The translations under genes and the position numbers were made by a program. A model generated the notes under the pieces. It saw nothing but the letters and a program-made list of their open reading frames with translations, was not told the DNA's origin and did no database searches. A DNA stretch of 64,000 bases. Source: Rhizaria sp. SCN 62-66. Taxonomy: Eukaryota. Position 1 is the stretch's first letter. Each line of letters opens with the position of its first letter. The DNA lies in the NCBI GenBank assembly GCA_001724265.1, contig MEDY01000220.1:1-64000 (forward strand). The letters are read 5' to 3'. Of the stretch, positions 23,746-60,300 are shown one piece after another.

Positions 23746-23786
23746 CGAGCCCTGCGCTTAGTCGAGCCCTGCGCTTAGTCGAGCCC
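23746..23786. repeat. 17-bp tandem duplication CGAGCCCTGCGCTTAGT x2.4 spanning the RRP4 stop codon
   Basis: Directly visible. Confidence 0.85.
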
Positions 23787-25979: not shown

Positions 25980-26029
25980 GTGCCATCATCTTGACCTCAG
26001 TCTTGTGCCATCATCTTGACCTCAGTCTT
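25980..26029. repeat. Perfect 25-bp tandem duplication GTGCCATCATCTTGACCTCAGTCTT x2
   Basis: Directly visible about 60 bp upstream of the RING gene ATG. Confidence 0.9.
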
Positions 26030-26089
26030 GTTCCCCCTGCTCTAAACCCACCCGCCCTTTGCGCCCGCCCCCGTCGCCCCCGCCCCGCC

Positions 26090-34700: not shown

Positions 34701-36726
34701 CTGTCGCTAACGTTACCGTGTTGTTTGAGGGCAGGCTCGCAGCAGACCGGTTACGATTATGCCGTGTAGCCACTAACGCTGCTTTTGTTACCACACCATC
34801 GACAGTGAGCGAGCTACTGTTAAGCACCCCTTTGCCGTTTGGAAGGGCAAGTCCAAATGTGTTGTTGTTACTGCTACTTGAGCTGTTAGAAGCAAATGAG
34901 CTCACACCCCCAGAGCTCGCATTAAAATGAAACTCGTTGCGGAGATTCGTGCAATCATCACAATTGCATCTGTTACCATCAACAGGAACGCCTTGAAGGC
35001 GTAACGCATGCTGCCGACGTTGCTGCTCACAGCCACTTATCGCAACCGATGACTGCTCACTGTCGCCTGAACTTGTCTGGCGACTATTGTCCCATGCATT
35101 GCTAGATTGTTGACATAGGGTGGCAGCGGTATCACTAACATTAGAGCTGTTTGTTGCCACAATCTGTGTTGAGCAATCGCTCGTACTATTGATAACCCCA
35201 ATGAGCACATGCACTGTTGCAATCAACGCGGCGCGACAGCACTGATTCGCAAGGCCACACGCAACGCTAACAATATACAACGGAATTTGTGCTGTGCGGT
35301 AAAGAACGGCAGCTGAAGAAGGGATTAACGCGGCAACACTGCGTGGCACAGCAAAGTGTGCGATGCGAGAAACACTTGGCGTGCTGAGATAGGCGGCAAA
35401 TGTGGGAATCGAAAACTGTGCCGTCACATCAACACTAGTTGCGCTTACGCTCGCGCTAAGATAGCTGTGATGACTGCGAGGCTGGGTTTGAGGTGCAACG
35501 TTGCTCACTACACTAAATGGAGCAGAGTTGCTCACTGTGCTTGTTGCAGCAGTCGATGAAGCGCAGCTAGAGTCCGTCTATGAAGCTTCGCTGCGTGTGC
35601 GCGAGTGCGTGCGCGAGCGAAAGTGCGAGTGAGCGTGGTTTAGATGCGACAATACGCGTGAGCTATGACCATCTGTCACAGATGTGGCTCTTCGTGGTGC
35701 ATCTTCACAGGCGCTATGCGTGCCTGTGTCGCGACGAGAAGACGTGCGATTGCAAGCATTGTCTTTACTACCGCCCACACGTAAATCACTACTTTTCCCT
35801 CGTTGCGCGTTGAGGTTCCGCTACTGAAACTGTGTTTTTGCGCTTAATCCATGCGTAACTGTTGCAGCAAGGAAGGGTTGCCATAGTGTATGTGCTGCGG
35901 TGCTGAGCGCAAACGAGGCGGTCGCAGCCAGCGGCTCTAATGCCAAGTACGAAAACGACGAGAGCGCACGCGGTAGCGGCAGCGGAGGAAATGACGCAAC
36001 CGACGACTCGGAGTTTGACGACCCAGCTGAGTGAGACTGTGCCGCCAAGTCGCTGTGGCTATGCGCAGCGTTGGCGTGGCTGTCACTGCCCCCACCGCAG
36101 CTACCTCTGCGCACGCCCAGTGTACGCGTTGCTGCTGCATACGGCAACGCCGCAGAGTGAGACTGCGAGCTGCGGCGCGACTGTGGGCGCGATAGCGACG
36201 CTGGCAGCGAGCTCTGCAGCAGTGACTGTGAGCACGTATTGTTGACATCAGTCGCTAACATCTCGCAAGACGCTTGCGCACGGCCGCTACTAATCAACGC
36301 GTGGTTAGTTGCGCCGATGTTGCTGCGATTAGGAGTAGTGTCGGCGTTGGCGTTTGTGCAAAGACGTGCGATATAAAATACGATCCATTTGACTGTGAGC
36401 ACAGTGACGAGCCAACAGAGCTGACACAAACCGGACAGAAACACAATCACGGTCCGAAGCCAGCCAGAAGCACGTCTACTCGGTAGGCTGTGCGGTAAAT
36501 GCGTTATGCTTGTGTTTGTGCCACCGGGATGCGAAATCGGGTCGTGCGTCAAACTTGGGGACGATGCAGAAGGCAACACTTGGTCAGCGTTCGCTTGAGC
36601 GTTATGCCTGTCGGAGAGCAGTTGAGATGACACATCCGAGCGCGAGTAGTACGGCTAGGATGCAGATGTTGGAACGGAGTATAACGGTGCGCCGCTGAGA
36701 AAGGCTGCCGAGGTGAAACCTGGCAT
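28798..36726 (-). CDS. Giant Ser/Ala-rich protein of unknown function, ~2640 aa, with three in-frame TAGs (36657-36655, 35823-35821, 35580-35578); ends TGA
   Basis: From ATG 36726 a single frame runs through track ORFs 35821..36633, 35578..35778 and 28798..35535 with only TAG interruptions (linkers checked by hand). Contains a hydrophobic segment near the N-terminus, a KRVRF motif and C-terminal Cys pairs. Confidence 0.7.
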
Positions 36727-37396
36727 TTGGAGAAGAAGGCTGTTGCGGCGACTGTGGGGGTGATGAGTGGCCAAGGTCAAGGCCGCAGAAAACGAGCCCG
36801 GAGGCACTAGAAGTGAATTTCAAAGAGAAAATAGACAGTATAAAACAATTTTAGCGTTTGTTTTCAGTTGAAGCCCATGAGCGATTGTTGATCAAATCTC
36901 GATTCCTATCCAGGTTTCAAGAGATGATGTAAGTATGGGTCGAGCGGAGAGACTCCTTGTGAGTCAGAGACTTCGAATGAGATAATGGGATGGTAACAAG
37001 TGAAAGAGCAATTATAATTTCTGGATTATGCATTTGCAACATAATCTTACAATTACGTAGTTTGTAGGCTCTTGGTACGAAAATATGACAGTAGAATAAC
37101 CTCTGCAAAATCAGATCTCCTTCCAAGACATTACAACCACAAGTCGGTTTCTTGACTTGAAGCTTTGTCTCCAGCGAGCTTCAAGTTAATATATCAAAAC
37201 ATGTCGCGGTATATTGTAGTTTCCAAATCTTAACAATGTATTTTCAAACTAGTTTAAATTATTTCACCTTCATATCTCTTTAAGACAAACATACACACAC
37301 AAATTATAATCTCTTGACCATCAGCTTTAGCTCACATACACCTAATCTGGATCAAAACACGGAGTACAACACAAGCATCAAGTATCACGCGAGTCT

Positions 37397-40300
37397 TCAA
37401 TCATTATCGTCAGCATCTACGCCGATTTGTTTGCTCTCAGAAGAAGTAGACTCAAAAACTAAGCTCTCTCTGTCGCAGGCTTCGGCAGGCTGAGATACCG
37501 CAGCGGTGTCCGACGACTGTCCGCAGTCTGAAAGCGCGTTGTCTGCCGACTGTGATCTCCCAATCTGCGGACTTGCGGACTGCAAGCAATCAACCAACTC
37601 CAAAATCGGCATTCGCTCCCCAGTGCACAGCGCTCCCGCGACCGCATCGGAGTCCGTCACGGTGGAGGGCTCGGTGGCATGCGAGGCGGTTGTTGCGACT
37701 GCGCTCTTGTCGCTGCGGGCGTCACTGTCGCTCATAACGCCTACACCGGACTCCCGCTGTGATACAGTCGTAGCGTCTACCATGACAGTAACCGCGAGCT
37801 GCGCGGTGTCATCGCTCTCTGCACTGTCGTCCGCGTTGGTGCCCGCAGTCCCCGAGTTGGCGGGAGCGGCGGCGGCAGCGGCGATGCGGGGCCGTTTGGC
37901 TTGTGGTGGCGGGGGAGTCAGTGGCGGCAACAGCTGTCCTGTCTCATTCTGATGCTGGCAATGCGAAGACTGCGGTTGCTGCTCTTTTTGCGACTGGCCT
38001 TGCTGTTGCTCAGAGAGCACAACCGTGATAGCAATCTCGCCTAGCGCTATCGTATCGGGAATTACAACGCTTAGCTCAACTCCACTGCTGATCTGAGCTG
38101 CGCCCCGAGAGACAGCAATATCAACATCAGATACGATCACGCCCGTCTTGGTATCGTCACGCACACAGTCGACATCACTAAAAACTGGGCTCGCTGCCGT
38201 CTTGTCACTGTCTTTCCTCGCCGCGTAGCGACCACAGTCTCTGTCAGAGTCGTCGTCATCAGTCTCGCAGTCGCTGTCGACGATTGCAATCTTGAGCCTG
38301 GTCACCCTTGCTGGCGTGGCGCCCTGCACCACCAGCCCTTCTCCGCCCGCGAACACCACTTGTGACTGCGGTTGCTGCTGCGATAAGTGCAGGTACGAGC
38401 GTACATGATGCGCGTGAGGTTCTGCGTGCGCAACGTGGGACTGCGACAACTGCAAGTGTGACGCACAGTCCACGTCTGCGTTGTCGCCCAGGAATGAAGC
38501 TGAAGCGGACATATGTGACGGCGATGGTGACGGGTGTAGATGTGGCTCAGTCTGTTGCCGCATCGCAGCGATTCGCTCACGAATGCAAGAAACGGACGCT
38601 TTGCGAGTAAGTGTGCCCGGCTGCAGCATTGGTTGATACTGCTGATGCTGCTGCCAATGTGCGTACGCATGACCGTCATCGTGCCCATGGCTATGCGCGT
38701 GCACGTGCGTGTGATTCGGTGCAGGCGTTAACGGCATACCCAACGCAATCGAGCCTGCAGCCTGACGACGAGGGCCAAGTGCAAAAGGATTCGGCCGCGG
38801 TCCGGCGCTCGGCACGCTCGCGCCAGCAGCAAATGGGGTGCTGTTGCCAGTGTGAATATGGTTGGCACTAGCATCCGCTGCGATGACATCCGCGCTAGCG
38901 TCACCTCCATTACGTGCAGCCAAGTCGCGCTGTCCACGTTCAGCGTGTTCGGTACTGCTGCCATCAGCGCGCACAAAGTTTGAAACATGTCCATCGACAC
39001 TGTTCTGGACTGGCGTGTGAATTGCGCTCTTGTGACTCGCGTATGGGTTCGCGTTCATGCTGACATTTACTGCAGACTGTCGCTGCAACGCGCTCGAGCG
39101 CATGCGCTGGTGGTGTTGCTGCTGTGCCTTGTCATACGCGTTGCTGTTACAATCAAAGCCGTCGTTGTTGTTCGCATTACTATTGCTGTCAGCAGGTGTT
39201 GCATCATGCTGCTCTCGGAGACGGTGTTGCTGCAGGTGCTCGCGGGCGTGATCAACGCGATGGCTAGGCGTCGCGCTGCGACTTGGCGCAAGCGCGCCCA
39301 GTTCAGTGCCTTGACCGCGATTGCTTCCGCGGAACATCGGAGTTTGAGCAGCATTGCCGGCGTAAGCGTGGTGATATGCTGGATCAGCACCATGAAAGCC
39401 GTCGACGCCGTCGTAACCGGCACGTAGCTTAGTAGCAGACGACAACGGCGGCAGCGGCGCCGAAGTAGTTCCTGGTGTGACTCCGCCAACAGCAGCGTGG
39501 GTACGCGCAGTGGGGGCAGGCGTCGCAGGAACGCTGGCGCGCCCAGCGGGGCCGAACACAGAGCCGGCGGCGCTGGGGGCCAGCGTTGCAGCGGCGCGGT
39601 GCGGGAACAGCGGCGGCCGCTGCTGCATATGGGGCTGCTGGTGATACGGCTGGTGGTGCTGCTGCTGCTGTTGCTGTTGAAGAACATCTTCTTGTTGGTT
39701 TTGCTGTCGCAGTTGATGATGCACTGAAGCTGGGCCCATAAACGGCGTCCGCGGCGGCAGCCCCATCGGCGCACCGTAGCCGTCTCCGCGTTCATGCCAG
39801 TGTCCGTGTCCGTGTCTGTGGTCGTGATTGTGGCTGTGGCTGCGGCTGTGGCCAGGACCGGGGCCGTAGTCCTGGGTGTCGCTGTGGCTGTAGCTGCCAA
39901 ATGCCGGCGGCTGCCACGGCCTCAGCGGCTCGCCGTGCGGGTTCGGCGCGCCGGGCTGCGGCGGCGGCGGCTGGTCCCAGTGCTGCCGCTGCAAGTGCTC
40001 ATGCGGCTGCGGTTCATGTTGCGGGTACTGCTGCAGTGGAGGCATACCATGCTGCGGTTGCTGCTGATGTTGCGGCGGGATGCCAGGCAAGGCTGAGCCG
40101 TGATGCGACATCGAATGTGTCCGGTGCATATGCGGCATAGATATCGGTATATGCGGCACAGGCGCGGGCGCAAACGGGCGACTCTTCCATGGAGCAAGCG
40201 GCGGACCGGGTCCGTGACCAGGGTCGGGCAAATGCTCGTTGACATGACTGAAGTCAGGGGCGAAGGGCAAGGGGTAGCCGGGAGTGTGGGGAAAGTGCTG

Positions 40301-41904
40301 ATGCTGCTGCTGCTGCTCTTGCCCAAACTGCTGCTGATCTGGGTTGCGGTGCGCTGCAAACGGTGCCGGCGGCGGCGCAAAAGGCTCGGGCGCAAAGTGC
40401 GGGATGTATGGCGTCAGCGGCGTGCGTCCCATCCCAGAGCCTGCACGAGCACTGGGAAAGACGTACGGATTGCCATGATCAGGACCGTGCATAGGCTGCT
40501 GCTGCTCGTGTAACTGAGGCTGAAACGGGAACGGCTGCAGATACGGGAACTGCTGCTGCTGGTCGGTGTGCTCTTGCTGCTGCTGCTGCTGCTGCTGCTG
40601 ATGCTGCCGTGGGGGAAACAACCCGACGCCACTGACACCGGTACTCGCGTACATGCTCGCACTCGTGTGTGCGTTTGCGTTTGCGTTAGTAAGCGCAGGC
40701 AGCGCCCGACGCACCATGTTCGTGGCCACAGCGCTGGAGCCCAAGGGCGCAGTTAGCGCGGGGAAGTGCTGGAACACGACTGCGCGCGCCAGCTGCACCG
40801 CCGCGGCACTCGCACTCGCATCGTAGCCTCCAATGTTGCCGTCAAAGCCGTTGAAGCCGTGATTGTTGTTATTGTTGTAGTCATGGTGCAGTAGTGCGGA
40901 GTGGCCGCCGCGCGCCCCACTGTGTCCTAGCAGCCCGCGGTTGTGGCCATTAACACCGAGTCCGAGCAGACACGAGTCAGCCGCAGCCGCAGCGTCACCC
41001 CCGGCCGCCGCTGCTGCAGAGGCCGCGAGAGCAGAGCCGCGGTGCCGCGTGAACATGTCGCTACTGAGCGGCGGCGCGGTGCCACCTGCAGCGCCCGCGC
41101 CGTTGCCTGCTGGGTCGTCCACTTCGCCGTTGCCGTTGTGCGTTTGCGTGTGAGTGCGCGCGTGAGAGCGCGGGGGCGAGGTCAGCGCATGCGTCGTGAG
41201 CAGCAGAGAGCGGCGCAGGCGCTGCACATCGAGACTTGCGCCCGCACTTGCGCCGCCGCCACGGTCGCCGCTGCCGCCGCTGCTGCTGCTGCGTCCCGCA
41301 GAGCCAGAGTCAAGGCCGTGGTCAGAGTGAGAGCGAACAGTGGAGCCGCTTGAGGCTGCGCGAAAGCGGTCGCTGAGGCGCGCGCGCAGGGAAAGCGGTG
41401 CCGAGCGGGTCGACGCAGCAAGCGCTTCGTCTAGAGTGACATTGTTGCGGTGACGATGCCGCTGCCTGTTGGGGTCTGCGATCGGGTTGTCTCGGTCGGA
41501 GTCTGAGCTGGCCGCTTCGTCGCCGTCGAGGTCGTCGCCGCAGAGAAGCTCGAAGGCGGCGCGGCCACGGACGACAGGAACGTTCTCAGACTCGCCGACT
41601 TGGGGCTGCGTCGGGGGCGCGTTTTCGCTACTCTCGTCTGTCACGGGAACTGCAGCGGGCGATTTGGGAAGGGCTGCGGCGCGCGCTTCCGCTGCGATTC
41701 GTTGCTCAGCGAAGAACTTCCTGTGACGAGGAGCAAGATAGACAGACAAGGGGTCGATGAGAGGATGCCACGTCTTCAGCGAGACTGAGTGACAGTCATA
41801 TATAGTCAGCAGATAGCCGAAATAAAGGAAACGTACCGTTGCTTGGAAAGCTCGGAAGTTGAACGCTGCTGAGCGCGCATGCGACTACCACCCATCCAAT
41901 TCAT
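37397..41904 (-). CDS. HEIP1/REDIC1 (C12orf40)-like protein, ~1463 aa; exons 41904-41837 and 41720-37397; ends TGA
   Basis: The spliced N-terminus MNWMGGSRMRAQQRSTSELSKQR|KFFAEQR matches the family motif as I recall it (MNWVGGSR...RKQKEYFEK). The rest is long and disordered (Gln/His/Pro-rich), as in that family. Confidence 0.72.
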
Positions 41905-44970: not shown

Positions 44971-45445
44971 CGTGATATAGCTAGAATCGTTGATAGAGCA
45001 GCGTACCACTCAGCCTGTGGAATGAAGTGACGCGCAAGCGGAGATGTGGTTCAAGGCGAGAAAGTAGCTGTAGAGGTAGACAAGTAATTTTAAAACTGCC
45101 GTGAGCAGGAATCACAAATTGACATATATTACGTACATATGTTGCACATAATTTTATCGCACATCACCAATACTGTGGTGTGTTGTGAGGGAAAATGCGT
45201 CGTGCACGTCGTCGATGCTGCATGCCACTCGCTCGATTCGCTGTGGACAAGAGAAAAGTGATAGATATCGCGACAATGATATCTGACAGCGAAAATATTA
45301 ATTAAACAACTATCAAAGCCCAACGGTTGTATCTGTAAAATATGTTAATTTTAGCCTGACGGACAAATACGCTCACAATTTAGTCCAATTGCAACCCATT
45401 TCATAAACTTCCGTCTCATCCAGAGCCTTCCGTGGTCAGCACCGA

Positions 45446-47752
45446 ATGAGTGCCCCTCACCGAGGCCCTCCTGGCGGTCATGCCCGGCCTTTCACTGCCG
45501 CCGGGCGATCCCGCGAGGACGCTATCTCTCTTGACAGCGACAGCGAGGACGGCGAGGACGGTCTCCAGGCGCAGGCCCGGCCGCTCGGCGACAGCCAACG
45601 GGCCGCTCTGACCCCTGCGGTGCCCAGCCGCGACCAGTCGCACCAGGGCGGCTACAGCAACAGCAGCAGCCAGACGCAAGGCCAGCGCACCACGGCAGCC
45701 CGTACTGTGCCGCAGTTGAGTGACATCGATAATGACGACAATGACGATATATGCGAGTTGCCGCTTGACGACTTCGTCAGGAAGCCAATCCCAGTCCGCG
45801 TACGTGCTTGTTACATCAATAACTCATCCATATATGCATGTTTTCAAATTAAATCTTAGGACACGGTATTAAGACACGTCAAATGTATGATACTTAGATG
45901 AAATTGCCACACCACTTTGTCATGCCATTATAATTCCTGTTCGCACTCATGCATCCTTCTTGTCCCGGTCCTCTTGCGCGCTCTCTCTCAGCGTGAAGCC
46001 CTCGTCGGCCCCCTCAGCTACGAGGTCGCCCCGCGCACATACGCACAGTCGCGCCCGAAGCGCCCCTCAGACCCCGCCGCGCTCGCCCACGACGGCCGGG
46101 ACTACCTGCAGCAGCAGCGGCCCGCGCAGCCGCGGACGTCATCCAACTCTAACGCCGGCGCCGGCGGCGGCAACATCGGCGCTGCGGCGGGGTACGGCAG
46201 CGGCGCGGGGCTGAACGCGGCGCTGGCGGCCGCACTGGGCGTCGGCGACAGCTGGGAAAGCCACCCGACGCTGCACTCGCGAGGCGCACACGGAGAGTAC
46301 ACAGACTACAGTGATCAGACCTACAAAGGCGGCGGCGGCGGCGGTGGCAGGGTACCCAGTCAGAAGGAGCTGTGGGAGCAGCACGAGCGCGAGAAGAGCG
46401 AGCGCGAACAGTACTACGCGCGTTTGTATCAGCAGCGGCAGCAACAGCAGCAGCCGCAGCAACCACAACAGCATCAACGACAGTCGCCAGCAAAGCAGCA
46501 TTTGCAGCCACTGCCACAGCAACAACAACCAAGGCAGACGCAACAACCTAAACCTGAGCAACTGCCGCAGCCTCACGAAGCCAAGACTCCGCTTAGCCAG
46601 AGCCAGACGCCGCTGCCAACCAGCTCGAGTCAGGACTTCGCGCCGAGCGCGCTGTCGAAAGAGCCGTCGCTGTCGTTCACGGCCACGTCTTTATCGTCGC
46701 TGAAGCTCCAGCCCATCCCTCTGGACACCGTCGACTCTTGCAACGACTCTTGGGGTGCTCACAGTACTGCAACGTCTATCCGCACAGCCGTCTCAGGCGA
46801 CGGCGCTAACTTGAACAGCACTGCCAGCAGCTCCACCGCCACCGCCGCGGGCCCGGGCCTCGGCCTCGGCCTCTCGCTCAGCCGCGTCGACACCGGCGCC
46901 GACAGCTCCACCCAGAGTCACCCCCTCGGTCACCCTTCCGGTCACGGCGCCGCGCCAGCGCGCCAGTACTGGCCGCCGCAGTGGCTGCTGGCGCCGGAAC
47001 CAGCCGCCCCCGCCCAGGCCCCGACCGCCAACTCAAGCTCTCTGACGACCAAGGCCGCGAAGAAGCCCCCGTTGGGCTCTATAGGCACACGCCTTGCCAC
47101 AGCCGGTGACACACATGCATCTACGACTGTGTTTGCAAGCGCGCCTACGATAGCGCCTGCGACGGCGAGCGTGCTGGTCATGCTACCCAACGGCTCGCGT
47201 GTGGTCCGACGCTTCCCCCTCGCACTGCCGTGCTGCGCGCTGTACCGCTGGGCGCAGCTCGAGGCGCGCCGCGCGGCCGCCGCGGCGCGCGCCAAGCGGG
47301 AGGCGCTGCGCACGGCGCGGAACCCTTTCTTGCCAGAGACACACGCGCTGCAGCCTGCCGTGATGGCGCGCTCGAGGGCCGCGACGCCGCCCAGCCACAT
47401 TCTCCAGTACCAGAGTCAGAGTCATCGTCACGCGACGTCGCCGACTGGAGCGTCTGCTGCGGCACAGTCGTCGCAGACGCAGTACTTGGACCGGAGCTAC
47501 TTAGACCTGTCCGAGGAGCCGGCGCCGTTCTTACTGTGGACACGTGTGGCGCCACGGAAGCAAATTCCCGCGCCTGTGGCCGTGGCTGCGGCGGCCGACG
47601 GCGTCGGCGGCGAGGGCGAGTGCTTTTGCTGCGATGTCGCGATGAGCGGCGACGCTTCGGGGGCGACTGCCGGCGCGTGTCCCGCCGGCCACAGCACCAT
47701 TGGGTAGATGAGGCTCAATGGGAGCACGCTGGTTGCCGAGGAAGCGGACTGA
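45446..47752 (+). CDS. UBX-domain p97/Cdc48 adaptor, ~704 aa; exons 45446-45799 and 45992-47752, reading through TAG 47705-47707 to TGA
   Basis: VRKPIPVR|REALV motif. UBX strands SVLVMLPNGSRVVRRF...LYRWA...FLLWTRVAPRKQI...STIG*MRLNGSTLVAEE; the last UBX helix/strand lies after the TAG. Confidence 0.78.
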
Positions 47753-48453
47753 TACGAGCGTGCTCGTTTTTGTTATTATCGTAGTTATATAGTCGGTGTT
47801 ATTCAAAATACACATGATTTTCATTTTCTCTCGAATGGTACGATGCTCAAAGCGAATATAAGTTATTGACTATGTATCGGTCCTTGTTGTCTCGGTGCGA
47901 GGATGCTCGTCTTCGCATGAGACAAAGCTGTTCTACGCAACGTTGCTTTGACTAACAAGGTTGTAAAATATAAGTTATCACCAATGCTATGATTTGTTTA
48001 AAGTAGATCCCCCATCCCCATTCGTCCCACGGCGTAGCGTTTTCGCCCCGAGCTACTTAAAGCTCGCACACTTCATCCTGAGTTGCAGTAACAACGCAAC
48101 GCAGTAAATACGCTGTAGCCATCGGTGGAACGACAACTGCAAGCGTAAACTCCGTCGAGTACGACACGCACGCATAGTGCGACCGAGGTTGAGGGACAAA
48201 TTCAACCCGATTCAGGCTACCTTTGCGACGAAGAAGGACCATTTACAGGCAGTGAACGATAGGACAGCGTTCACAGATTTACCACAGTCGTAAACATGCA
48301 TAACAAGCGATCAAACGTTGTCAAGCGCTACCCATCATTCGAAAGTCAATCTGAAGTACTCTCGACACAAGCGCGGCACACAGACGCCGCAATGCGGCAC
48401 ACCACACGTTGGGACAAGTTGAGTCTGTAGCAAGCGGAGACAGTGTGGTGCGC

Positions 48454-48913
48454 TTACTTCTTAGGGGTCTGGTAGGAGCTGGCGGCCTTGGCGAGCTTGT
48501 TGAGCTTGCGCACGACGCGCATCTCCTCGCGCCAGCTGCTGCTCTCGTTGAGCTCATAGGGCATCTTGTACTCGGGCGCGGTGTGGAACTGCTGCAGCTG
48601 GCGGTCATCCATGCCGCGGCGCATCAGCTTGTAGAGACTAAAGACATGTTGATATAATACAGCGGAGTGAGGAACGCAAAGAGAGATGTGTGAGGAATAC
48701 AGTCGCGGAGATGAATGAGAGTCGTTGAGCTTCTGTGGTTGCGATTACTTAGGACTTCTGTGTGAAATAAGAAAGTTGTGGTAAGACGTACCGAGCATCG
48801 GAGGAGTTAGGGACATGACGAGCAACGGTGTTAAAGATCTCCGCACGGTTGATGGCGACCGTCTTGAGCTGCAGAGGGGACAGCTTGACGAGCTGCTGAA
48901 CACGGGGAGGCAT
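48454..48913 (-). CDS. Small basic protein, probable mitochondrial ribosomal protein mS33, 101 aa; exons 48913-48792 and 48637-48454; ends TAA
   Basis: Hand-spliced product MPPRVQQLVKLSPLQLKTVAINRAEIFNTVARHVPNSSDAR|LYKLMRRGMDD...WREEMRVVRKLNKLAKAASSYQTPKK with strong codon bias. The RAEIF..VAR and terminal PKK pattern recall mS33/Rsm27. Confidence 0.55.
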
Positions 48914-49576
48914 TCACAAACTGGGCGAAGAGAGCAGGGTCGACACAAGGGAAGAAAAGAAGGTGAGAGAATTTCGTTAAATTATATCATACGACATGCT
49001 CCACGAATATGTGTCGTGATACACAAAGCATATACACACGGATAGAGCTTGCACTGCAGACGTTCGAAGATCAGCCCAGTGTGTTCGTGGGCTGTGCGGT
49101 CAGTCGTCCATGCCGATCTGTCTCGACTGAGCTCAGCCTCGGCTCACAGTCCGCTCGAAGTTAGGCCGTCGGGAGGTTTCGACCACAATCCTCCTATGGC
49201 GAGGGCATTTCGGAAGATTTTACAAGGCAAACGGTCATGTATGAGTCCTTAATTTCCCACACTATTTTTTCGAGTCTGTTTCCATTCTTAAATTTAACTG
49301 AGCAATCCCGCGGATGAGTATACCATCTGTACTGGAGGGTGTTTCGTTCCCTGGCAGTCGCATGCTCACCTCACGTCCAACATATCTTTGTCTCGCAGAC
49401 ACCATTCCCATCGTCAAGATGATGTTTCAGTGACATGCCGACTTCCAAGGCCACGTTAAATACGGCCATCACAACTTGCAGTTCAGTATCACTCACTCTT
49501 TCTCTTTCAATCTGTGCTTCTATCTATGACTGCTCTTTCTACTTGCACTTCCCCTCTCACCTCACTTCATGCAGTC

Positions 49577-52500: not shown

Positions 52501-53554
52501 GCAGCGCACGGCGTCGCTGCAGCTGGCCGAGCTCGAGAAAGAGGTTTCGTCGCAGCGCGCGCGCGCCAAGGCGCTCGAGACTGACCGCGTCAAGGTCGAG
52601 GCCGAGAAGCAAGCGCTGCTCGCCCAGGTCGACAAGGCCAAGGAGGACGCCGCCGCCGCGCTCGCTGCCGTTAAGGCCGAGCTCGAGGCCGAGAAGGCCA
52701 AGACCTCTGCCGCGACCGCCGACGCCGAGGCTGCCCGTGCCGCTGCCGCCGCCGCCACCGAGGCCGCTGCTGCCGCCGCTGCTGCCGCTGCCGCTGCGCC
52801 CGCGGCGGCCGCGCCGGCCCCCGCGGCCGCGCCAGCCGCCGCGTCCGCTGCGGACATTGAGGAGCAGCTGGCCGCGGAGCGCAAGAAGGCCGCAGCGGAG
52901 GCGACGGCGGCGATGGACGCCGCGCGCAAGGAGCGCGAGGACATGAAGAAGATGTTCGAGGCCGAGATGGCGCGCATGAAGGCTAAGCTCGAGGAGGAGC
53001 AGCGCCAGCGCGAGCGCACCGAGAGCGATCTGCGCGAGTCCCGCGCTGCGCTCGCCGCCGCCGCGACGGCCCCCGCCGCGTCGTCCGCACCCGCCGCCGT
53101 GGCCGCGGATATCCCGCCCCCGCCCATGGACCTCTTTGCGCCCCCGCCACCCCCGCCGGACCTCTTCGGCGACATGGGCGGCAGTTCAGGCGGCGCCGGC
53201 GCGCCCCCGCCGCCGCCGTTCCTGGACGACCTCTTCGGCGACCTCAACGCGGGTCCGCCCAAGATCGTCATCAACAAGTCCAACAAGCCCGCCCCGGCCG
53301 CGGCGCCCGCCGGCGGCGGCATGGGCGGCATGCTCGATGCCATCCGCGGCGGCGTGAAGCTCAAGAAGGCCGCGCCGCGCCAGGAGACCCCCGCCGCGGC
53401 TGCTGCCGCCGCCAAGGCCGCCGCGAGCGACGGCGGCATGGGTGGCATGATGAGCATTGCGGCCATGGCAGCCAAGAGCGCGGCGGACCGCCGAGCGCGC
53501 ATGGCCGCCAACGGCGGCATGCCCACCATCTCTTCCGCGCCCGCTAAGAAGTAA
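49577..53554 (+). CDS. Actin-binding protein: N-terminal calponin-homology domain, long coiled coil, poly-Pro, C-terminal WH2; ~1325 aa; ends TAA
   Basis: LKSGVHLCELIN...QMENISYFLQAARVYGMPDRDLFVTVDLFEAQNIKQV (calponin/IQGAP-type CH), a long E/K/R/A-rich heptad region, PPPP tracts and GMLDAIRGGVKLKKA (WH2). Confidence 0.88.
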   Translation: MDGHKGEKEALAFVNKALGLSLTSVANDLKSGVHLCELINFVSTKNGGPELIVPKKINRMRIAFSQMENISYFLQAARVYGMPDRDLFVTVDLFEAQNIKQVCHCIRELEVRFNSGAAAPASAAAAGSSVTAVPKPTAHAAASVTTPSRANMASGAYAPFSASSPSHSSHSSAPVAPARPVLVSPGPAPRASVTASATPTIKAPSITAGLYAQFSAAPAPVAAKAPVVAAEVKPSEPGTKTILPPSVAAKQAAAPAPATVPEPAPVAAAAAPAPAAVPEPEPAAPTPADAAAAESAAVSAALAEEEAAKRAAAEAAAKAAAIDDEVAALRRQLDETKRRAAAEEEDRRTRAEVEALREHKQAVATAKDHLELEKRKHQVDSEAAAAAAATSAATEATAAAEATAAAASAAAAASAATAAEEVRAREESAAALAEAQRAFDEQRSKFEEERSQLKQRLEAQEARLSEVKKIEEERQKLVDEKKAYEHSLRTRMDAELDRVRADAASKLLERQLELETERARRDADVKEARLQLTRKIEELEAQRNAAEQRATAAAADATAGDAEKQSKFAAELEAIRAQLAREKEEALLQAAIEQDRVRMEADSRAIDEVRRQAERTTEQFKAQAKADYERELSTLRARYDADITRREQERLREQAALEAELTAKHQADIAAAKQQAEDAKKAADDARAAAAAGGSQTAVLEAEREQATRQLEAERIEREGLQQKLQALKEELSSRAESDESAAVAKQQSLQQELREQFDEELARVRKTVDVRLASEERQLKEREAALNAQLEAAKAALKEELRRTEEEAAKAIQAQKESGEAERAELAALVSQLRAEAEKKSAEIRLQEALEKERAGFAAQQVEMATAKAESESAYQAKLSAMTTALETEKKKLNDLQAQLEASAAAERARVEDQQRGQTASSERDAERDAAVAAARAEREEVKRKFEEELARLKAKEEEDNVRRAAESKEHAAAQRTASLQLAELEKEVSSQRARAKALETDRVKVEAEKQALLAQVDKAKEDAAAALAAVKAELEAEKAKTSAATADAEAARAAAAAATEAAAAAAAAAAAAPAAAAPAPAAAPAAASAADIEEQLAAERKKAAAEATAAMDAARKEREDMKKMFEAEMARMKAKLEEEQRQRERTESDLRESRAALAAAATAPAASSAPAAVAADIPPPPMDLFAPPPPPPDLFGDMGGSSGGAGAPPPPPFLDDLFGDLNAGPPKIVINKSNKPAPAAAPAGGGMGGMLDAIRGGVKLKKAAPRQETPAAAAAAAKAAASDGGMGGMMSIAAMAAKSAADRRARMAANGGMPTISSAPAKK

Positions 53555-54368
53555 GCGAGCTAACGACCGGTTGAACCGAATCGGCTCTGGTAGCTTTGTG
53601 ACTCGTAAGTCGGTCACACTTCTCTTTTCACTCTCACTCTCTGTACATGTAAAATTCTTTTCTTCTTTCTTTGTTGTCTCGTTATAGTCAGTTTCTTCCA
53701 GCTCTTCTTTTACGATTTGTTAGTTTGATGACCAAACCAACCATATTTTGTAGTTTTATGTAAAGATATCCGTACGTAATGATGATTGACGTATAATCGC
53801 ATCTCTTGATTGCTCTCCTGCTGTATGTTCGAGTGATGCTGTTTATTCGCTGTTTGATTGTCTTGTTCGCTTTTGATGTTCATTTGCCGATGTTGAGGAA
53901 AAACACTACGTTCGTTGCTTGGCCGGTTGGATGTGTGTTTGTGTGCGTGTGTATGGACGATGAAAGGTGTTTTTGACGTATGGGCCTCTCCGTTATGCGT
54001 GACTCGCACAACCACTGTACAAGTATGTATGTGGGTTATGCATGCTGTTACGTTCTTTCAATACAACTCTCTTTTCTAAAAGAACAACAACAGCACACCA
54101 CCGAATGCATTCCCGACCGACTAACTTAATGAGATTAAGATGTTTACACTTCTTCTTCTTCTTCTTCTTCAGACCCACCACAAAAAAAATTGTGCGGCAG
54201 CCAGTGAACATTTAGCACTCTGTAGTGACACAACATGAAGATGCTTGAAATTTCAATAATTATTGCAGATACCATTTGCTTATTCCCATGTACTTTTATT
54301 TGCGTTCTGTCAATGACGGTTTTTGCGCAGTGCTAGGCGAAGGATACGATTGGAACTGTGAGTCAATC

Positions 54369-57300
54369 ATGAGCGCACCTGATCCTCGCAATCCCTTTGC
54401 GAGCGCCTCAGCAAGCACCTCTAACCCGTTTGCGACAGCGGCAAGTGCGCCGAACCCGTTTGCCACGTCGCAAAATGCTGCCATAGCGCCTAACCCTTTC
54501 GCAGCAGCAGGCTCGGCGAATCCGTTTCCTGCTGCTGCAGCCACTGGCGCTGGTGCAAACCCTGCAAACCCGTTCGCGACTGCCACAACATATGCCAATC
54601 CTTTTGTGACCGCACCTACTACTGCCGGCTTTGCAGCTGTTCCAAACCCCTTTGCTGGAGCTTCGACAGCGCCTCCCGTAGTCTTAGTAAACAACCCTTT
54701 CGCAACTGCATCCACAGGAGCTTCAGTGCAAACGAACCCGTTCGCATCTGGAACGACGTCCTCCAACCCGTTTGCATCTGCTCTGACTGGCAGCAACCCT
54801 TTTGCTTCAGCGACCGCAGCAGCTAACCCTTTCGCGTCTCTGGCGACTCCTGCTCCTGCGCCTTACCTTGCTGCCACACCGCCCGCCGCGAAGCCGTCCA
54901 GCCTGGATCCGCTTGTCACGACGAGCGCCCTGGGGCAGATCCCGCTTCAGGCGCTCACTGCATCGGTCGAGGCCGCGCTGCTGGACGCCGCCTCGGTTGC
55001 CGCCGCGGCTTCACTCTCCCCCTCGCACGGCGGCGGCGGCGAGGGCGACGCGCAGGACGCGGCTGCGACGGGGGCGGGGGTCGCGCAGTTCTACCAGCTC
55101 CCGCTTGTCGGGCTCATTCCGGCCCCGCAACCCTTGGCAGCCAACAACAACAACAGCAGCAGCAGCAGCGGCAGTGGCGCTGGCGCTGCGGCGCAGAGCT
55201 CGCTCGCGTCCCGCTTCGCGGACGGCGGCATCATCCCGCCCCCGGCGGTATTGGGACTAGCGCTGACGACGCTCGCGGCTTCGGGCGCGGGCGCGGCGGC
55301 GGCGCGGCCTCTGGGGCCCAGCTGGCAGCTGCTGCACTCGCAGGCGCAGTCGCAGCTGCACGCGGTGCGCAAGCGCGCACAAACGCCGCCCATGCTCGAG
55401 TCCGTGGCGACCGAGGGCCAGGTCAGCGCCATTGCCGCCGCCTCTGAGGCCCAGCAGGGCCCCGGTGCCGATTGCAGCAGGACCCGGTTTGCGCTTGATC
55501 CCGTCGCGCTTAAGTGGGCGCGGCCGAGCGCGAACGAGCTACCATCTGGACTTGCGGTGGCGATGGCGGTGCCGCCCACGGCCACCGCGGTGGCGGACCC
55601 AGCTGTGGTGGTCAGGGCCGACAATGTTGTGCGTCCTGCACACGCCCACGCGCAGGCCAGCAAGGCGGCCGCAGTTGGCCGCGTTGGTGCGAGGAAGCGC
55701 GCGCTGGACAGCAGTGCCGCTGGCTCTGCCGGGGCCCTGGAGACTATCCAGGACGACTTGAACGAGGAGGAAAGCGATGATAGCGAGGGTGATGACGATG
55801 ACGATAGGTTTATTGAGACCAATGCTGACGACATCATGCGTTGTTTTAGGGGCCAGTCAGTTGTTAGCCGTGCTCAGTTCAAACAAAAAAATACCTTTTG
55901 GAACAACAAAAAAAGGATCACGTATGTTTCAGCTGCTCCGACGACCACACCGCTGCTATCGCCGCCGCCACTCCCGTCAGCCACAGCTGCATCTGCACTC
56001 GACTTGAGCACGGCGGCCGCGCTGTTCTCCGCGCTCCCGCAGCCGCTTGCCCCTTTCCCGCTCAGCCTCGGACACAGCAACCTCCGCCGCGCCGCGGCCG
56101 CGCCCGTGCTCGGCGTCGCAGCCGGTGCCGCCACGGCTGCCGCGTTCGCCGTGCTGACGCAGACGCCGCTGTCGTCGTGGCGCCCGACGGTGGTGAGCGC
56201 CAAGCCTGCTGTGTTGAAGCATTCGGACGCGATTAGTGCGATGAGCCACGAAGACGCGCTCTCCCTGGTTGCGAACATGGGCTCTGACGAAGCCAATAAC
56301 GCTTCAGATCATAATGATCAGATCACCGATGGTACCAACAGCAATGACGATGACGTTGCGGACAATGATGCTGATGACGGCGAGTACTTCATAAACAGTG
56401 CGAAGAAGGACGGTCCCGGCCTGAACGTTATGGCGTCCGCCATCGCGGCCCGCCGTGCGCAGCGTGACCTAGAGGTCGCCGCGACGCTCCCACCGCCCCC
56501 GCCTCCCCCGCGCGCGCCGTATCTAGTGCCGAGCACGCTGCACGCGTGGCGCAGCGTGCTCGTCAGTGCTCGCGCAAGTAAAGCGTCACTGGCCAAGGTT
56601 TACACTGATGCTGACGATCGCTTAAGCAGTCGCATTTCTGCCTTGTTGTCAATCTTTACTCCCCTCAGCAAGGGCATGAGCAGCATGAACCCCAAACTAG
56701 CCTCTAAGTCTCCGTCGCACAACCTCATCACATTGCCTCTTAGCCCCACCAATCTCCGCCTGACTTCTTTGGCGATTGCTCTCTCTGTGACGCGTCTGCT
56801 ACTCCGCACCATGGCTCGTGCTCATGTGTTTGCCCACACCGTTGCGCTTGCACGCACGCGCATTCCTGTCCTGCCCGCGTACCTCTCGTCGGAGGCCGCT
56901 CGAACAGCACGCAGCAGTATGGAGAAAGAGCTGGCCCTGGAGGCGCAGACCGCCGCCGCGACTCTCAGCATCGCGCGCGCGCCACTGGCGTACCGCTGCT
57001 TGTTTTCGCTTGCCGCAGCTGTTGTCGACAGCAAAGCGCGCGAGTGTGGCTATGCTCTGCTGCCCGCGGTCGTGACTGCGCTGATGAGCGACAGCCCGCC
57101 AGCGACGCTTGTTGAAGCTGCTGCTGATGCCGCTGCTCTGGCCGCTGTGATTTCTGACGCGACCAACGCGAACGCGACCGCTACAGGGATGAACGACAAT
57201 GATAACGAAGAGAGTAGCATTGACGGGAGCCTCGAAAAGGCAGATTTGAATGTGCGGGTCATCACCAAGGTTAATGCTGAGTTATGTGGTGTGAATGATT

Positions 57301-60300
57301 CGGAGGAGGGTCATAAGGACCCGTTTGCACCTTTGAACTCGTCAATTCTTGCAAATCACGTCAATCCCAAGACCGCGTCCGCTTTAGCCGCTGTGGCTGT
57401 GGGCAGCGCACAGTCACCTATGCCTTCTGCAACCGCGACGACCGCGACCGAGGACACAGAGTTCTCTCTGCAAATCTCTGAGTTAGCAGGAATGCCTGCG
57501 ACGCTGCGGACGACTAATCTTGCCGCTTTGCCCCCGCATGATTCGCCGCCGGAGCACGCTGTGTTGTCCGCGACGTTTGCGCCGGACAGTGTTGACGCTT
57601 CGCCTTCAACGCTTGCTGCGTTGCTGCACGTCCCGCCCCCGGCCGCCGTCGCAGACATGCGGCGGCGCGCGATTGCCTGGGCCAAAGACGTGCTGACGCT
57701 GCAGTTCCGCGCCTGCACCGGAAACCCTGCTGCGATGGCCACTGCGGTCGCTGCGGTGCAATCGGCGCTCCGTTCGCCCGGCGTGATGGCGCGTTTCCTT
57801 CCGTTCGACTGTGCCGAGCGGTGCATCGATGTCGTTACGTCGTTGGTCGACTCCACGCGGCTCGGACTCATTGCGCTTAACGCTGCGGCAGTCGAAACAT
57901 CGAAGCCACTGCTGAAGCTTGCGGGACGTGGTCGGCTCGCTGCAGAGGGTGTTGCCGCAGCAGCAGCGTCCAGGGCTCGTATCGAGGCTCAAGCCAAGGC
58001 GCGTGCTAAAGCAGCGTACAATGAAACTAAGGTTTTCGGTGTCACTCTGACTGGATTGATTGTCAATTCCAAATCTAAGCAAGCGGTGCGTACGGTTTCT
58101 GCAGCACAAATGACGCCAGAGCAACGTGTTTCAGTGGGGCTCCCTCTACTTCCTGCTGCAGTCGATGTCTCTGGCCGACCGGGCCACGTCACACCTGGAA
58201 TCAAACAGAAGATGGCAGTTGCGCGCATGTCCTTCGTCAGCTCTCATCAAAACTCAGCAGCAGCGACTGCACAGGCAAATTCAATCTCGCGTGTTTTCCG
58301 TTCTGGCCCATGGCGCGTTCCCCACGCAGACCGGTACTCACTTCTTTTTGCGCGGGACTTGACTGTGAATGAGGCAACAGCAGCTGGATGGCGTGGTCGC
58401 TGTGACGCGGAGCGCGTCCGCGCAACTGCATCTGGTTTACTGAGAGCTGCGCGTGACGATGTCGGCGATAATGTTGGCATGAGGAGCATTGCCCGACTGT
58501 CGCACCGTGGACGCGTGCCATATCTTCTGGCTCTTGCCCTCGATGCCGCAGACCGTGCCCGCGCGCGCTCACTTGCGATCGCAGCTCTACCTGCTGCTGC
58601 TGCTGCAGAACAAAGTCCTGCTTCGGCTGCAGCTGCCCTGTTAACGGCTGCGATTATCCCGTCACAGGCACTGCGGACGCTCCGTCGCGCGCTTGTCGCA
58701 CTCACTCGCTCCAGTCGGCTTCTGTGGCGCCGCAGTCAACTTGACGCATGGGCGGCGCACCTGCGTGCGGGTGAGTGGGACAACGTCGTTTCTGCCCTCA
58801 CAAGGCGTGGCATGCTTCCTGACAGTGTAAATAAAGCCTTGGCTGACTCGTCGCCTGCAATCATGGCTGGTCCGGAGCTTTTGCGCGCGCTTGTAGCTGC
58901 AAAGGCAACATCGGGCGGTTCCTCAGCTGCTGTTGTCACTAGCGTCGCTGCCGCAGTTGCCGCAGTGCAGCGCTTCTCGACGCAAGTGCGCGACCAGCGT
59001 TCTGCTATCAGCGAAGCATATGCTGCCGCCGTGAGTGATTTCATTGCTGCAGCGGCCGACGCGACGGAGGAGCTTGTTGCCTTAGCAAACACGGACACTA
59101 GCTGTGTCAGCAGCTGTGCGCGCCACGGGCGCCACGCAAGCTCGCACCAAGACAGCGTGAACGCGTGTCACTGCCCACCGCAGCTTGTTGTGGCGTTGCA
59201 ACTCGCGCGCGCGGTTGCAGCAATGACTGCAACACTGAAGGGAAGTATTGAAGCGCAGCGTCATTCGTCGCTTGCTGTTGACGCTTTGCTAGCCCGCGCA
59301 GGTTCAGCTCTGCATGACGCCCCTGCTGGCCTCATATCCGTTGGATCCCTGCCTGACCTGCCCACTGCCAATTCCGGTAAAGCCTTGACGCCCGCACTTG
59401 CAGCAGCCGCTGCTGCCCTGGACCAGCCTGCGCTGACGGATGCAGGTCTGATTCAAGGCGCTCCGCTGCTGCGTCGGCCTCGCGTTCGCGCAGCTGTGTT
59501 CGTTCTAGGTGCTGATAGCGCCAACGCGAACGTTTCACGTTCAAGCAACGGATGTGCAAAGAACGAAGGACTGGCGTTGGCAGGTGCGCTTATGGAGTCT
59601 GAGGCTGCAGCACGCCATACCGCGACTGCAGTTGTAAGTAATTCACTTGGAACTGAGTATAACCTCGATGGCTCTGCTCTGAGGAGTCTTCTCGTTGCGT
59701 TTCCGTCAGCATTTACGACAGGTTCAGTGGCGAACTGCGCTCTTTCGGTCCCCGGCCTTTCGCTTCCGCTCACAATCGCACTGGCACGACTATTACGGCT
59801 CTGCCCCGGTGCACTGCACCTTGTTTTTAACCCCACACTTTCTCTGCAGTCGCACTTGGCTTCGCTCTTCACTGCGGTTACCGCTGCCGACGACGGTGAG
59901 GTTGCTTTTGCATGGGCTGAACTTACGCGTTCTCTTCCAGCCAGCGAGTGTTTCAATGAAGTGTCTGAGAGCTCTTCAGATGGCAAGCATAGTCAGCAAA
60001 ATATGGGTGATGTGGCGCTACAGTCACTGCGACGTGCGTTGAACGCCGTGTATGCCAGCAATACTAACAGTAGCACAAGCAAGCATGGTGTCACATTGGC
60101 TCAGCTTTTTCCCGCAGGCATCCTCTACGCACTTGCCCGTCATACGCAGCTCTCACTTGCTGTTGCAGGACGCACACTCTGGCTCCCACAAGCTGCTTGG
60201 TTACTTTGTGGCCCCTCACACCCTCTGTCGCCTGTAAGCACAAGCAAACGTGTTGACAGCTCTGCTTCAAATCTTGGCATGCAAATTGCAAGCGAACGCG

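Follow-up and report, generated by a model that had tools for sequence, protein, structure and literature searches.

Whether the in-frame TAG at positions 47705-47707 of the window (the whole stretch of 64,000 nucleotides that was analysed, from a metagenome contig of eukaryotic origin whose exons are GC-rich and whose introns are short and AT-rich) ends the gene at 45446-47752 or is translated is the question raised by this locus. UAG is probably read as an amino acid, with the TAG read through to the TGA at 47750 and 15 residues completing a divergent UBX domain. The original prediction of a TAG, 14 sense codons and a TGA was borne out at every position of 47690-47752, which run from CAC AGC ACC ATT GGG through the TAG and ATG AGG CTC to GCG GAC and the TGA at 47750-47752; the frame is that of the long open reading frame (ORF) 45902-47707. 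A DNA run of a separate study (X3) yielded a contig that matches 47465-47893 letter for letter, TAG included, so the TAG is no assembly slip. The gene has the following parts.

45446 to 45799, forward strand: first exon of the gene with the UBX domain (start codon ATG at 45446; 118 codons, in frame with the ORF 45407-45859)
45800 to 45991, forward strand: putative AT-rich intron of phase 0, from GTACGT to CTCTCTCAG, predicted from the sequence only
45992 to 47704, forward strand: second exon as far as the TAG, with the UBX-like domain behind a long stretch of low complexity
47162 to 47275, forward strand: UBX N-terminal block with strand 1, strand 2, the start of helix 1 and the MLPNGSRVVRRF motif (Pfam, custom HMM, hhalign, model)
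47528 to 47566, forward strand: third strand with the A-P-R loop, which corresponds to F-P-R in UBX domains (MAFFT, model)
47705 to 47707, forward strand: in-frame TAG, at residue 186 in the domain stretch of 200 residues counted from 47150
47708 to 47749, forward strand: 14 codons past the TAG, MRLNGSTLVAEEAD, with the last strand at 47726-47743 (model)
47750 to 47752, forward strand: TGA, the likely true terminator, with AT-rich sequence beyond

Exon 1 ends at the donor GTACGT (45800). A contig from a poly(A) RNA library (X7) was unspliced across 45886-46262, overlapping the putative intron, and may represent DNA carry-over or pre-mRNA. Read by the standard code, the gene yields a product of 577 residues that ends at the TAG and is entered as such in the public protein set. 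The 14 codons behind the TAG would stay open by chance with P = 0.58, so that their openness alone is uninformative. Their GC3 (0.79) resembled that upstream and fell to 0.21 past the TGA; stretches behind true stops, used as controls, ranged from 0.14 to 0.79 (2 of 13 reached the GC3 of the post-TAG codons), and the codon score of +3.3 was matched by 1 of 13 controls, so the composition is not distinctive.

The evidence supports placement of the TAG within a divergent UBX-like beta-grasp domain. Pfam UBX (PF00789) scored 13.8 bits with the whole ORF and 15.7 bits with a C-terminal stretch of 214 residues (E 0.017-0.07), below the gathering cut-off of 21 bits and with only profile positions 5-38 of 82 aligned; the 200-residue domain stretch gave no Pfam match at E <= 0.01. 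With hhalign, the N-terminal half matched a set of 26 harvested UBX domains, all of which match Pfam UBX, with a probability of 92.8% (E 3.8e-7; 36 columns, extending past the motif). A custom UBX HMM scored 22.8 bits on the N-terminal block (47162-47275), and the ten best named clusters in ESM-Atlas were all UBX (top score 0.88). The motif (R)LP(D/N)GSR..RRF is present, and its positions L12, P13, G15, R17, R20, R21 and F22 are invariant in the query and the 26 domains, an invariance that is a selection effect because the relatives were picked by that motif. The domain had originally been described as a conserved UBX domain; the UBX-like identity stood, and "conserved" was overstated with Pfam below its cut-off.

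Towards the C-terminus, MAFFT paired PFLLWTRVAPRK with the family pattern YxLVxxFPRR, whose P is shared by all 27 rows. The loop of the query reads V-A-P-R-K, with the invariant P, the R usual in the family, and A in place of an aromatic residue. The F-P-R loop between UBX strands 3 and 4 contacts the N domain of p97, as known for FAF1-p97, and PDB entry 3qca refers in its title to the "FcisP touch-turn motif". Taken by itself, the block of strand 3 and A-P-R scored weakly with both the HMM and hhalign, and the C-terminal half alone aligned in hhalign over strand 3 only (E 0.15).

Compared with the UBX domains of FAF1-, UBXD7- and PUX-type p97 (Cdc48) adaptors, the query shares the N-terminal L-P-x-G-S-R-x-x-R-R-F block and keeps the invariant P and also the R of the S3/S4 loop. 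It differs in that two of its loops are lengthened by inserts (about 85 residues and about 45 residues), in A-P-R as against F-P-R, and in its Pfam score below the cut-off. Long inserts in these two loops also occur in two natural UBX domains (L014 and L089). The UBX domain ends directly before the stop codon in the query and in 26 of 26 harvested relatives. Pfam found no UBA, UAS or SEP domain upstream of the UBX-like domain.

The extension past the TAG resembled a UBX C-terminus modestly by sequence statistics. It had been expected to improve the Pfam UBX alignment and gave no gain (13.7 bits with the extension vs 13.8 bits without), because the local alignment of HMMER halts at the insert of about 85 residues; no UBX match appeared in Pfam when C-terminal pieces carried Q, E or L in place of the TAG. 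Positions 60-77 of the custom HMM aligned to GHSTIG-(TAG)-MRLNG-STLVA. The C-terminal block scored -0.4 with X at the TAG, and the 40 residues upstream of the TAG scored -2.9. An equal or better match was reached by 66 of 1745 control windows (3.8%), these being 35-residue windows from other genes in the window, and by 407 of the 1745 when the match position in the HMM was not limited. The strict C-terminal UBX motif given in the original prediction had no match in the six-frame translation, the query site included, and a relaxed expression, loosened after the sequence was known, matched 3 of 127,996 six-frame positions, the query site among them.

The fold model supported the extension as the UBX C-terminus much better than the sequence statistics did. 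AlphaFold2 was run on a 27-row alignment (query plus 26 UBX domains) for the 200-residue stretch from 47150. The model contained a short helix (I184-M187) that holds the TAG residue 186 and a last strand at T193-E198, with a pLDDT of 82-90 for residues 181-200, 86-94 for the N-terminal block, 80-90 for the strand at 127-131 and 80-94 for the core segments. Compared by VIA-align with the UBX structures of FAF1, UBXD7, PUX5 and p47, the model gave Z of 10.0-11.2 over 76-79 residues and aligned up to its residues 198-200; with the UBX domains of PUX5, UBXD7 and FAF1 alone, Z was 10.4-11.2 and rmsd 2.2-2.4. The model shows the complete beta-grasp order (strand, strand, helix, strand, strand, short helix, strand), which presupposes that the TAG is read through. 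This agrees with the claim that a stop at the TAG would delete the last strand of the fold, where the post-TAG residues are predicted to lie. The model is not independent evidence, because MAFFT had already set the last strand of the family on those residues. In Foldseek, UBX and ubiquitin-like domains topped the list for the 27-row model (E 0.04-0.5, about 39 columns). AlphaFold2 on the single sequence gave a mean pLDDT of 48.7, falling below 50 from residue 131 and to means of 27-39 from residue 141, with the C-terminus unmodelled; Foldseek found nothing at E <= 0.001 for that model, and its best match in a wide structure comparison (VIA) was to designed proteins (Z 5.3).

The window holds six candidate in-frame TAGs in four genes, three of them strongly supported by open-frame statistics. 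The five other than TAG 47705 are as follows.

20607 to 20609, reverse strand: in-frame TAG with 350 upstream codons (ATG near 21659) and 2181 downstream codons in one frame (upstream chance P = 0.0023)
35578 to 35580, reverse strand: in-frame TAG in a giant gene (28798 to about 36725), with 382 upstream codons without TAA or TGA (P = 0.0003)
35821 to 35823, reverse strand: in-frame TAG in the same giant gene (open-frame statistics, P = 0.0003)
36655 to 36657, reverse strand: in-frame TAG 23 codons past the first ATG of the giant gene, less sure
13363 to 13365, reverse strand: possible in-frame TAG 12 codons past the ATG-ATG start of a gene for an EF-Tu-type GTPase (10708-13401)

The TAG at 36655-36657 is less sure because the start codon of the giant gene is unproven, and the TAG at 13363-13365 is ambiguous, as the gene may really start at a later in-frame ATG. 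Frame 0 of the giant gene scored best by codon use in most 30-codon windows. No intron-like sequence was found around the TAG at 20607 or those of the giant gene. Eight gene frames with 13,802 codons contained 6 TAG, 0 TAA and 0 TGA, an exclusive presence of TAG that is weaker evidence than it appears, since random nonsense in GC3-rich genes would be biased to TAG. TAG occurred at 0.43 per 1000 codons and was missing from ACL and CH, which had the strongest codon bias among the genes counted. Of the other gene ends in the window, 10 used TAA and 3 used TGA, with TAG at none of the 13, an absence that in this small sample would still be about 5% likely if TAG made up 20% of stops. The base after true stops was G in 7 of 14 cases (six of these TAAGCG); after the six in-frame TAGs it was C (4) or A (2) and never G (hypergeometric P = 0.044 for no G in six).

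That the TAG is an ordinary stop, the protein being truncated by a recent nonsense mutation or in a decaying gene and the 14 codons a relic or chance, is unlikely. The entry of the 577-residue product among public proteins, the shortness of the extension with its high probability of being open by chance, its small HMM score and the lack of a Pfam gain all fit this explanation, as do the strong divergence of the domain and the failure to detect orthologues. Searches for these with region 400-616 returned the protein itself or nothing in a word-indexed search of 5.8 billion proteins, and the outcome was the same with HMMER against 1.84 billion representatives; a scan of metagenome loci for six 8-residue peptides gave 310 pattern matches and none confirmed, the N-terminal 42 residues gave 9 candidates at E <= 10 and none scored, and phmmer against solved structures gave one chance match (E 1.1). 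An ordinary stop would, however, require that 3 or 4 of the roughly 17 genes within the 64 kb carry premature TAGs. The other TAGs lead into hundreds to thousands of open, codon-biased codons, and TAG stands at no gene end. Against it are also the same TAG in the DNA of a second study and the modelling of the extension as the missing strand.

Similarly improbable is a standard code in which UAG is edited (by A-to-I to UGG, Trp, or by U-to-C to CAG, Gln) or is leaky, near-cognate tRNAs reading through it in a programmed way that depends on context. Editing of UAG to UGG by A-to-I conversion occurs in some fungi, and C at +4 makes the leakiest stop context; the C that follows four of the six in-frame TAGs and the absence of G, the +4 base of half the true stops, are as expected from leakiness or editing, as are the rarity of TAG and its absence from ACL and CH. 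Three readthroughs in one gene would, however, multiply to a very low yield, editing to Trp conflicts with the UBX column, in which Trp has the lowest emission of all residues (0.003), and neither process explains the absence of TAG from 13 gene ends.

A 5' splice site at 47704/47705 (GG/GTAGAT) with the true C-terminus in another exon, the alternative raised originally, has GT directly after the last G of GGG and the existence of introns in the organism in its favour, but is very unlikely, as the +5 position is G in all four recognised donors (GTATGC, GTTCGT twice, GTACGT) but A in GTAGAT, the sequence past the TAG has a GC of 0.62, unlike the AT-rich introns, the forward strand from 47753 to the convergent gene offers no exon-like ORF with coding signal (the sole ORF scoring positive there runs antisense to the convergent gene), and four runs gave no credible joint (the listed RNA contigs of X4, X5 and X7 do not reach 47705). 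The joints among the contigs listed all lay in low-complexity repeats, with sides of 20-23 letters.

With UAG as an amino acid, the organism would terminate at UAA (mostly in the context TAA-GCG) or UGA, and the ribosome would pass the TAG at 47705 and stop at the TGA at 47750. The 15 added residues would contribute the short helix and the final beta-strand to a divergent UBX (beta-grasp) domain at the C-terminus, whose loops carry two long low-complexity inserts. Decoding would involve a suppressor tRNA(CUA), with weakened recognition by eRF1; no tRNA genes were found in the 64-kb window.

As to the residue, the column aligned with the TAG contained E 13, A 4, D 3, S 2, Q 2, T 1 and G 1 among the 26 UBX domains, with no hydrophobic residue, and the custom HMM set the TAG on the second e of the consensus t-l-e-e-a-g-l. 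The likelihood ratios from this column were 8.3 for E:L, 2.8 for Q:L and 2.9 for E:Q (Gln emission 0.075; Trp the least likely residue). An alternative placement by MAFFT put the TAG in an insert, where it is uninformative on the residue. The original inference of a polar or acidic column favouring Gln or Glu and disfavouring Leu thus agreed with the relatives as to the column, and its preference over Leu was weak (3- to 8-fold). One column is too weak to settle the residue or to reject Leu. If TAG is sense, Glu is the foremost candidate at somewhat below an even chance, Gln is slightly less probable, Leu is unlikely, and other residues are a little less likely still. The TAG at 47705 is the best site in the window for this question, being worth a likelihood ratio of about 3- to 8-fold: it is the sole TAG site that can be aligned, the other five lying in low-complexity sequence without relatives, and no paralogues of the large genes of the window that could align other TAGs were found.

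The organism is an uncultured eukaryote of wastewater and bioreactor metagenomes and is tentatively placed in the Cercozoa. A tree of ACL (33 rows) hints at this placement, with the window in a clade with a cercozoan transcriptome sequence (98% SH-aLRT); the tree is of a single gene, and support for a tie with named Cercozoa is weak in part, at 72% for the chlorarachniophytes. The ACL of a relative (P0003) is 77% identical. The window was not grouped with alveolates among the 33 rows. A trypanosomatid with a Blastocrithidia-type code was dropped as a candidate because of the introns and the presence of an ATP-citrate lyase gene.

NCBI table 15 (Blepharisma) reads UAG as Gln with UAA and UGA as stops. 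The same code is reported for Iotanema spirale (PMC5304391) and for Hartmannula sinica and Trochilia petrani (PMC11687900). These systems resemble the window in the reassignment of UAG alone, probable in the window, and in UAA as the preferred stop, and Gln is acceptable in the UBX column; they are a metamonad and ciliates, whereas the window belongs to a long, GC-rich contig with introns. UAG is Leu in three genomes of uncultivated phyllopharyngean ciliates from metagenome data (PMC11687900), a likeness in that the code change was found in metagenome-assembled eukaryotic sequence, with UAG sense and UAA stop. Suppressor tRNA genes were found there (PMC11687900), and the organism of the window falls outside the alveolates in the ACL tree.

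The one known rhizarian case, exLh (Sainouroidea, Cercozoa), reads UAG as Leu and terminates at UAA and UGA (Panek et al. 2017, PMC5304391); the eRF1 of exLh and of Iotanema was inspected there for changes in the GTS, NIKS and YxCxxxF regions. In exLh, and probably in the window, UAG alone is sense. UAA outnumbers UGA in both (56 vs 15 in exLh, PMC5304391; 10 vs 3-4 in the window), and UAG is scarce in the highly expressed genes of exLh (PMC5304391) and absent from ACL and CH in the window. The ACL of the window clades with a cercozoan sequence, and a kinship to Sainouroidea would rest on that one gene. UAG is frequent in exLh (384 in 71 genes, PMC5304391) and rare in the window (6 in 13,802 codons), and it is Leu in exLh, whereas the UBX column gives Glu or Gln an advantage over Leu of 3- to 8-fold. 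A literature search on Sainouroidea and UAG gave PMC5304391 alone, and there was no mention of Cercozoa among the matches listed for literature since 2018 on reassignment of UAG or stop codons.

A more specific and rather doubtful reading is that this is a probably cercozoan, widespread protist of wastewater reactors in which UAG alone encodes Glu, UAA and UGA are stops, and stop-codon capture is at an early stage. An early stage of a change to Glu would account for UAG being very rare, avoiding G as the next base and being absent from highly expressed genes. The known codes with UAG as Glu also reassign UAA (peritrichs, Blastocrithidia, Oligohymenophorea sp. PL0344), and we know of no code that combines UAG alone as Glu with UAA and UGA as stops. 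UAG-only reassignment in nuclear genomes is described for a handful of lineages (PMC5304391; PMC11687900), and a sense UAG here would add one more, from a free-living protist that is GC-rich and has introns. The rare TAGs in a context unlike that of true stops would then show early or incomplete capture. Gene calling by the standard code would truncate proteins of this organism, and the public UBX protein would lack the last strand of its sole recognisable domain.

The stretch 47690-47752 read CAC AGC ACC ATT GGG TAG ATG AGG CTC AAT GGG AGC ACG CTG GTT GCC GAG GAA GCG GAC TGA; on re-reading the sequence, the letters of the original prediction were exact. The TAG (47705-47707) and the TGA (47750-47752) share the reading frame of the long ORF 45902-47707. 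A contig from a DNA run of another study spanned 47465-47893 with 0 differences to the window, so the TAG was present in the organism's DNA. The UBX-like gene was read from the sequence as:

45446 (ATG) to 45799, plus strand: exon 1
45800-45991, plus strand: inferred intron, phase 0, GTACGT...CTCTCTCAG
45992 (start), plus strand: exon 2, mostly low-complexity

Its sole recognisable domain was C-terminal, and its public protein was a bacterial-style call only, of 577 residues and ending at the TAG. A contig from a poly(A) RNA library at 45886-46262 was unspliced across the last 106 bases of the inferred intron 45800-45991, which may mean that DNA was carried over, that the RNA was pre-mRNA or that the intron model is wrong; the same run also lay over AT-rich intergenic sequence (48008-48199 and 49122-49356).

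Sequence methods detected only the N-terminal half of the UBX-like domain (residues numbered from 47150, with TAG as residue 186). Pfam UBX aligned profile positions 5-38 of 82 with 13.8-15.7 bits, under the cut-off of 21, and no orthologue of the gene was found in any sequence collection searched. With the table-11 part as query, the ten best named ESM-Atlas clusters were all UBX (top score 0.88, a lead only). For a family profile, metagenome contigs were scanned with a degenerate pattern of the UBX N-terminal motif; the 120 loci returned gave 26 non-redundant C-terminal UBX domains (<80% mutual identity), all 26 matching Pfam UBX. Against this alignment, hhalign matched residues 5-40 of the window's domain (probability 92.8%, E 3.8e-7), a partly circular result because the motif used to collect the relatives is one that the window's sequence nearly shares; the match reached past that motif.

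The Pfam UBX test proposed with the original prediction gave no gain from the extension, that is, from the residues added by reading through TAG to the TGA (13.8 bits without it, 13.7 with it), and C-terminal pieces alone had no Pfam UBX match. The score stayed flat because a local HMM alignment cannot bridge the inserts in the window's domain, of about 85 residues after helix 1 and about 45 after the A-P-R loop. Natural C-terminal UBX domains with long low-complexity inserts occurred on other metagenome contigs, in L089 (231-569, minus strand), where about 35 residues follow helix 1, and in L014 (1259-1690, minus strand), where about 60 follow the F/Y-P-R-R loop; these were the same two loops. 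When the 26 harvested domains were made into a custom HMM, its positions 60-77 (d-e-k-t-l-e-e-a-g-l-a-g-q-e-a-L-f-v) aligned to GHSTIG-[TAG]-MRLNG-STLVA. This C-terminal placement scored a small -0.4 bits with X at TAG, and the 40 residues upstream of TAG scored -2.9. Among control windows from the window's other genes, 66/1745 scored as well or better in the same part of the HMM, and 407/1745 with any part allowed. MAFFT agreed with the custom HMM in setting STLVAEEAD beneath the family's last strand, but it set the family's T-L-x-E-A-G-L beneath the pre-TAG SGATAGA, which leaves TAG within an insert.

AlphaFold2 left the C-terminus of the domain unmodelled without an alignment. With a 27-row alignment, on which the model depends and from which it is not independent support, mean pLDDT was 69.1 (86-94 for residues 1-60, 80-90 for 121-140 and 82-90 for 181-200). 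Strands were predicted at 5-11, 17-23, 127-131 and 193-198, a long helix at 28-57 and a short helix at 184-187 (I-G-[TAG]-M), whose placement in the model follows the original prediction and not MAFFT. VIA-align matched the model to PUX5 (Z 11.2), UBXD7 (Z 10.8, 76/79 residues aligned), FAF1 (Z 10.4-10.7, 77-79 of 80-81 residues) and p47 (Z 10.0), the model ranges ending at residues 198-200. Ubiquitin-like proteins followed UBX domains by at most 1 Z unit, so what the model shows is a beta-grasp fold; assignment to the UBX subtype depends on sequence motifs. Sequence gave moderate support, and the alignment-guided model good support, to the original proposal that the TAG lies inside a UBX-like domain, where stopping would delete the last strand.

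The other in-frame TAGs in the window, none with intron-like surroundings, were:

20607-20609, minus strand: TAG joining 350 codons (ATG behind AT-rich sequence) to 2181 same-frame codons
35578, 35821 and 36655, minus strand: three TAGs in the 5' part of a giant gene ending at 28798
GTPase gene 10708-13401, minus strand: ambiguous TAG, 12 codons past an ATG-ATG start

Chance absence of TAA and TGA had P = 0.0023 for the 350 codons upstream of 20607-20609 and P = 0.0003 for 382 codons without TAA or TGA in the giant gene's 5' part, where the TAG-containing frame had the highest codon score in the majority of 30-codon windows. In small samples, all from one 64-kb window, eight gene frames (13,802 codons) held 6 TAG, 0 TAA and 0 TGA, and 13 other gene ends were TAA (10), TGA (3) and TAG (0); genes rich in GC3 would tend to acquire TAG when nonsense mutations arise by chance. 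The base after true stops was G in 7/14, six of them TAAGCG; after the six in-frame TAGs it was C (4), A (2) and never G (hypergeometric P = 0.044, hand-computed). TAG is thus probably translated, mainly on evidence from genes outside the originally predicted site. None of the RNA contigs listed spanned the TAG of the UBX site. Editing of the RNA, readthrough specific to the site and an ordinary truncating stop are each possible there, and each explains six TAGs together with TAG-free gene ends worse than a code change does. Use of GG|GTAGAT as a splice donor is unlikely: GTAGAT has A at +5, where 4/4 recognised donors (GTATGC, GTTCGT, GTTCGT, GTACGT) have G, the 45 bases after TAG were GC-rich, and no plus-strand exon was found downstream of the site.

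Six of the ten TAA gene ends were followed by GCG and a seventh by GGG, and TAAGCG seems to be a strong, extended signal for termination. The six were:

5484-5486: gene end, TAA then GCG
23402-23404: gene end, TAA then GCG
23775-23777: gene end, TAA then GCG
28146-28148: gene end, TAA then GCG
48454-48456: gene end, TAA then GCG
53552-53554: gene end, TAA then GCG

With TAG taken as sense, its aligned column in the 26 UBX domains held E 13, A 4, D 3, S 2, Q 2, T 1 and G 1, with hydrophobic residues in 0/26. HMM emissions were E 0.222, K 0.079, Q 0.075, L 0.027, Y 0.013 and W 0.003, giving likelihood ratios of 8.3 (E:L), 2.8 (Q:L) and 2.9 (E:Q). The direction originally claimed, polar or acidic over Leu, held. 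A single column, drawn from one subfamily of UBX domains and read under one of the two alignments that are possible, would identify the residue only weakly. The other five TAGs lay in low-complexity sequence without relatives and were uninformative. From the column ratios, the known UAG-only codes as priors and the cercozoan hint below, Glu was the tentative first choice, Gln a close second and Leu improbable.

In PMC5304391 and PMC11687900, UAG alone encodes Gln in Iotanema, Hartmannula and Trochilia, and Leu in the rhizarian exLh and three phyllopharyngean genomes. There, exLh, Iotanema and some ciliates keep UAA and UGA as stops, the code type proposed for the window's organism, which, if confirmed, would be a further case of an already described code; the supplementary tables might add lineages. 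The code would be a variant in its own right only if the residue were Glu with UAA kept as stop.

The contig is eukaryotic, with GC-rich exons (GC3 up to 0.93) and short, AT-rich introns, as in the ATP-citrate lyase (ACL) gene, where Pfam and frame reading identified the exons. Runs containing the stretch were bioreactor, wastewater and activated-sludge metagenomes. The ACL gene (5484-9300, minus strand) was of the fused type with at least 3 introns, and its nearest relative among the matches listed was metagenome protein P0003 (77% identity). In a maximum-likelihood tree of 33 sequences, picked for name or high identity from 120 listed matches, the window's protein grouped with five unnamed metagenome sequences and no named member (100% SH-aLRT), nested in a 98% clade with a sequence from a transcriptome annotated as Cercozoa (taxid 136419); chlorarachniophytes were linked weakly (72%). 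A cercozoan origin is only hinted at, as a one-gene lead and no finding.

Two codon-usage classes occurred on the contig: giant low-complexity genes (28798-41884, 54249-63998) had GC3 of 0.55-0.64, and ACL, the CH-domain gene, the GTPase and RRP4 had 0.87-0.93. Three of the six in-frame TAGs fell in the low-GC3 class and 0 in the two genes counted whose codon bias was strongest. The GTPase (10708-13401, minus strand) was EF-Tu-type (GTP_EFTU 99.5 bits; domain 2 and eEF1A C-terminal matches weak), with a long Asn/Thr/Ala-rich N-terminal extension. A RING-finger gene (25922-28148, plus strand; C-terminal C3HC4 RING, MGLSF... start near 26090) required a frame change between ORFs 25922-27502 and 26916-28148, within a very GC-rich GGC-repeat stretch at about 27150-27200, for which an intron, a slip in the assembly or a frameshift could account.
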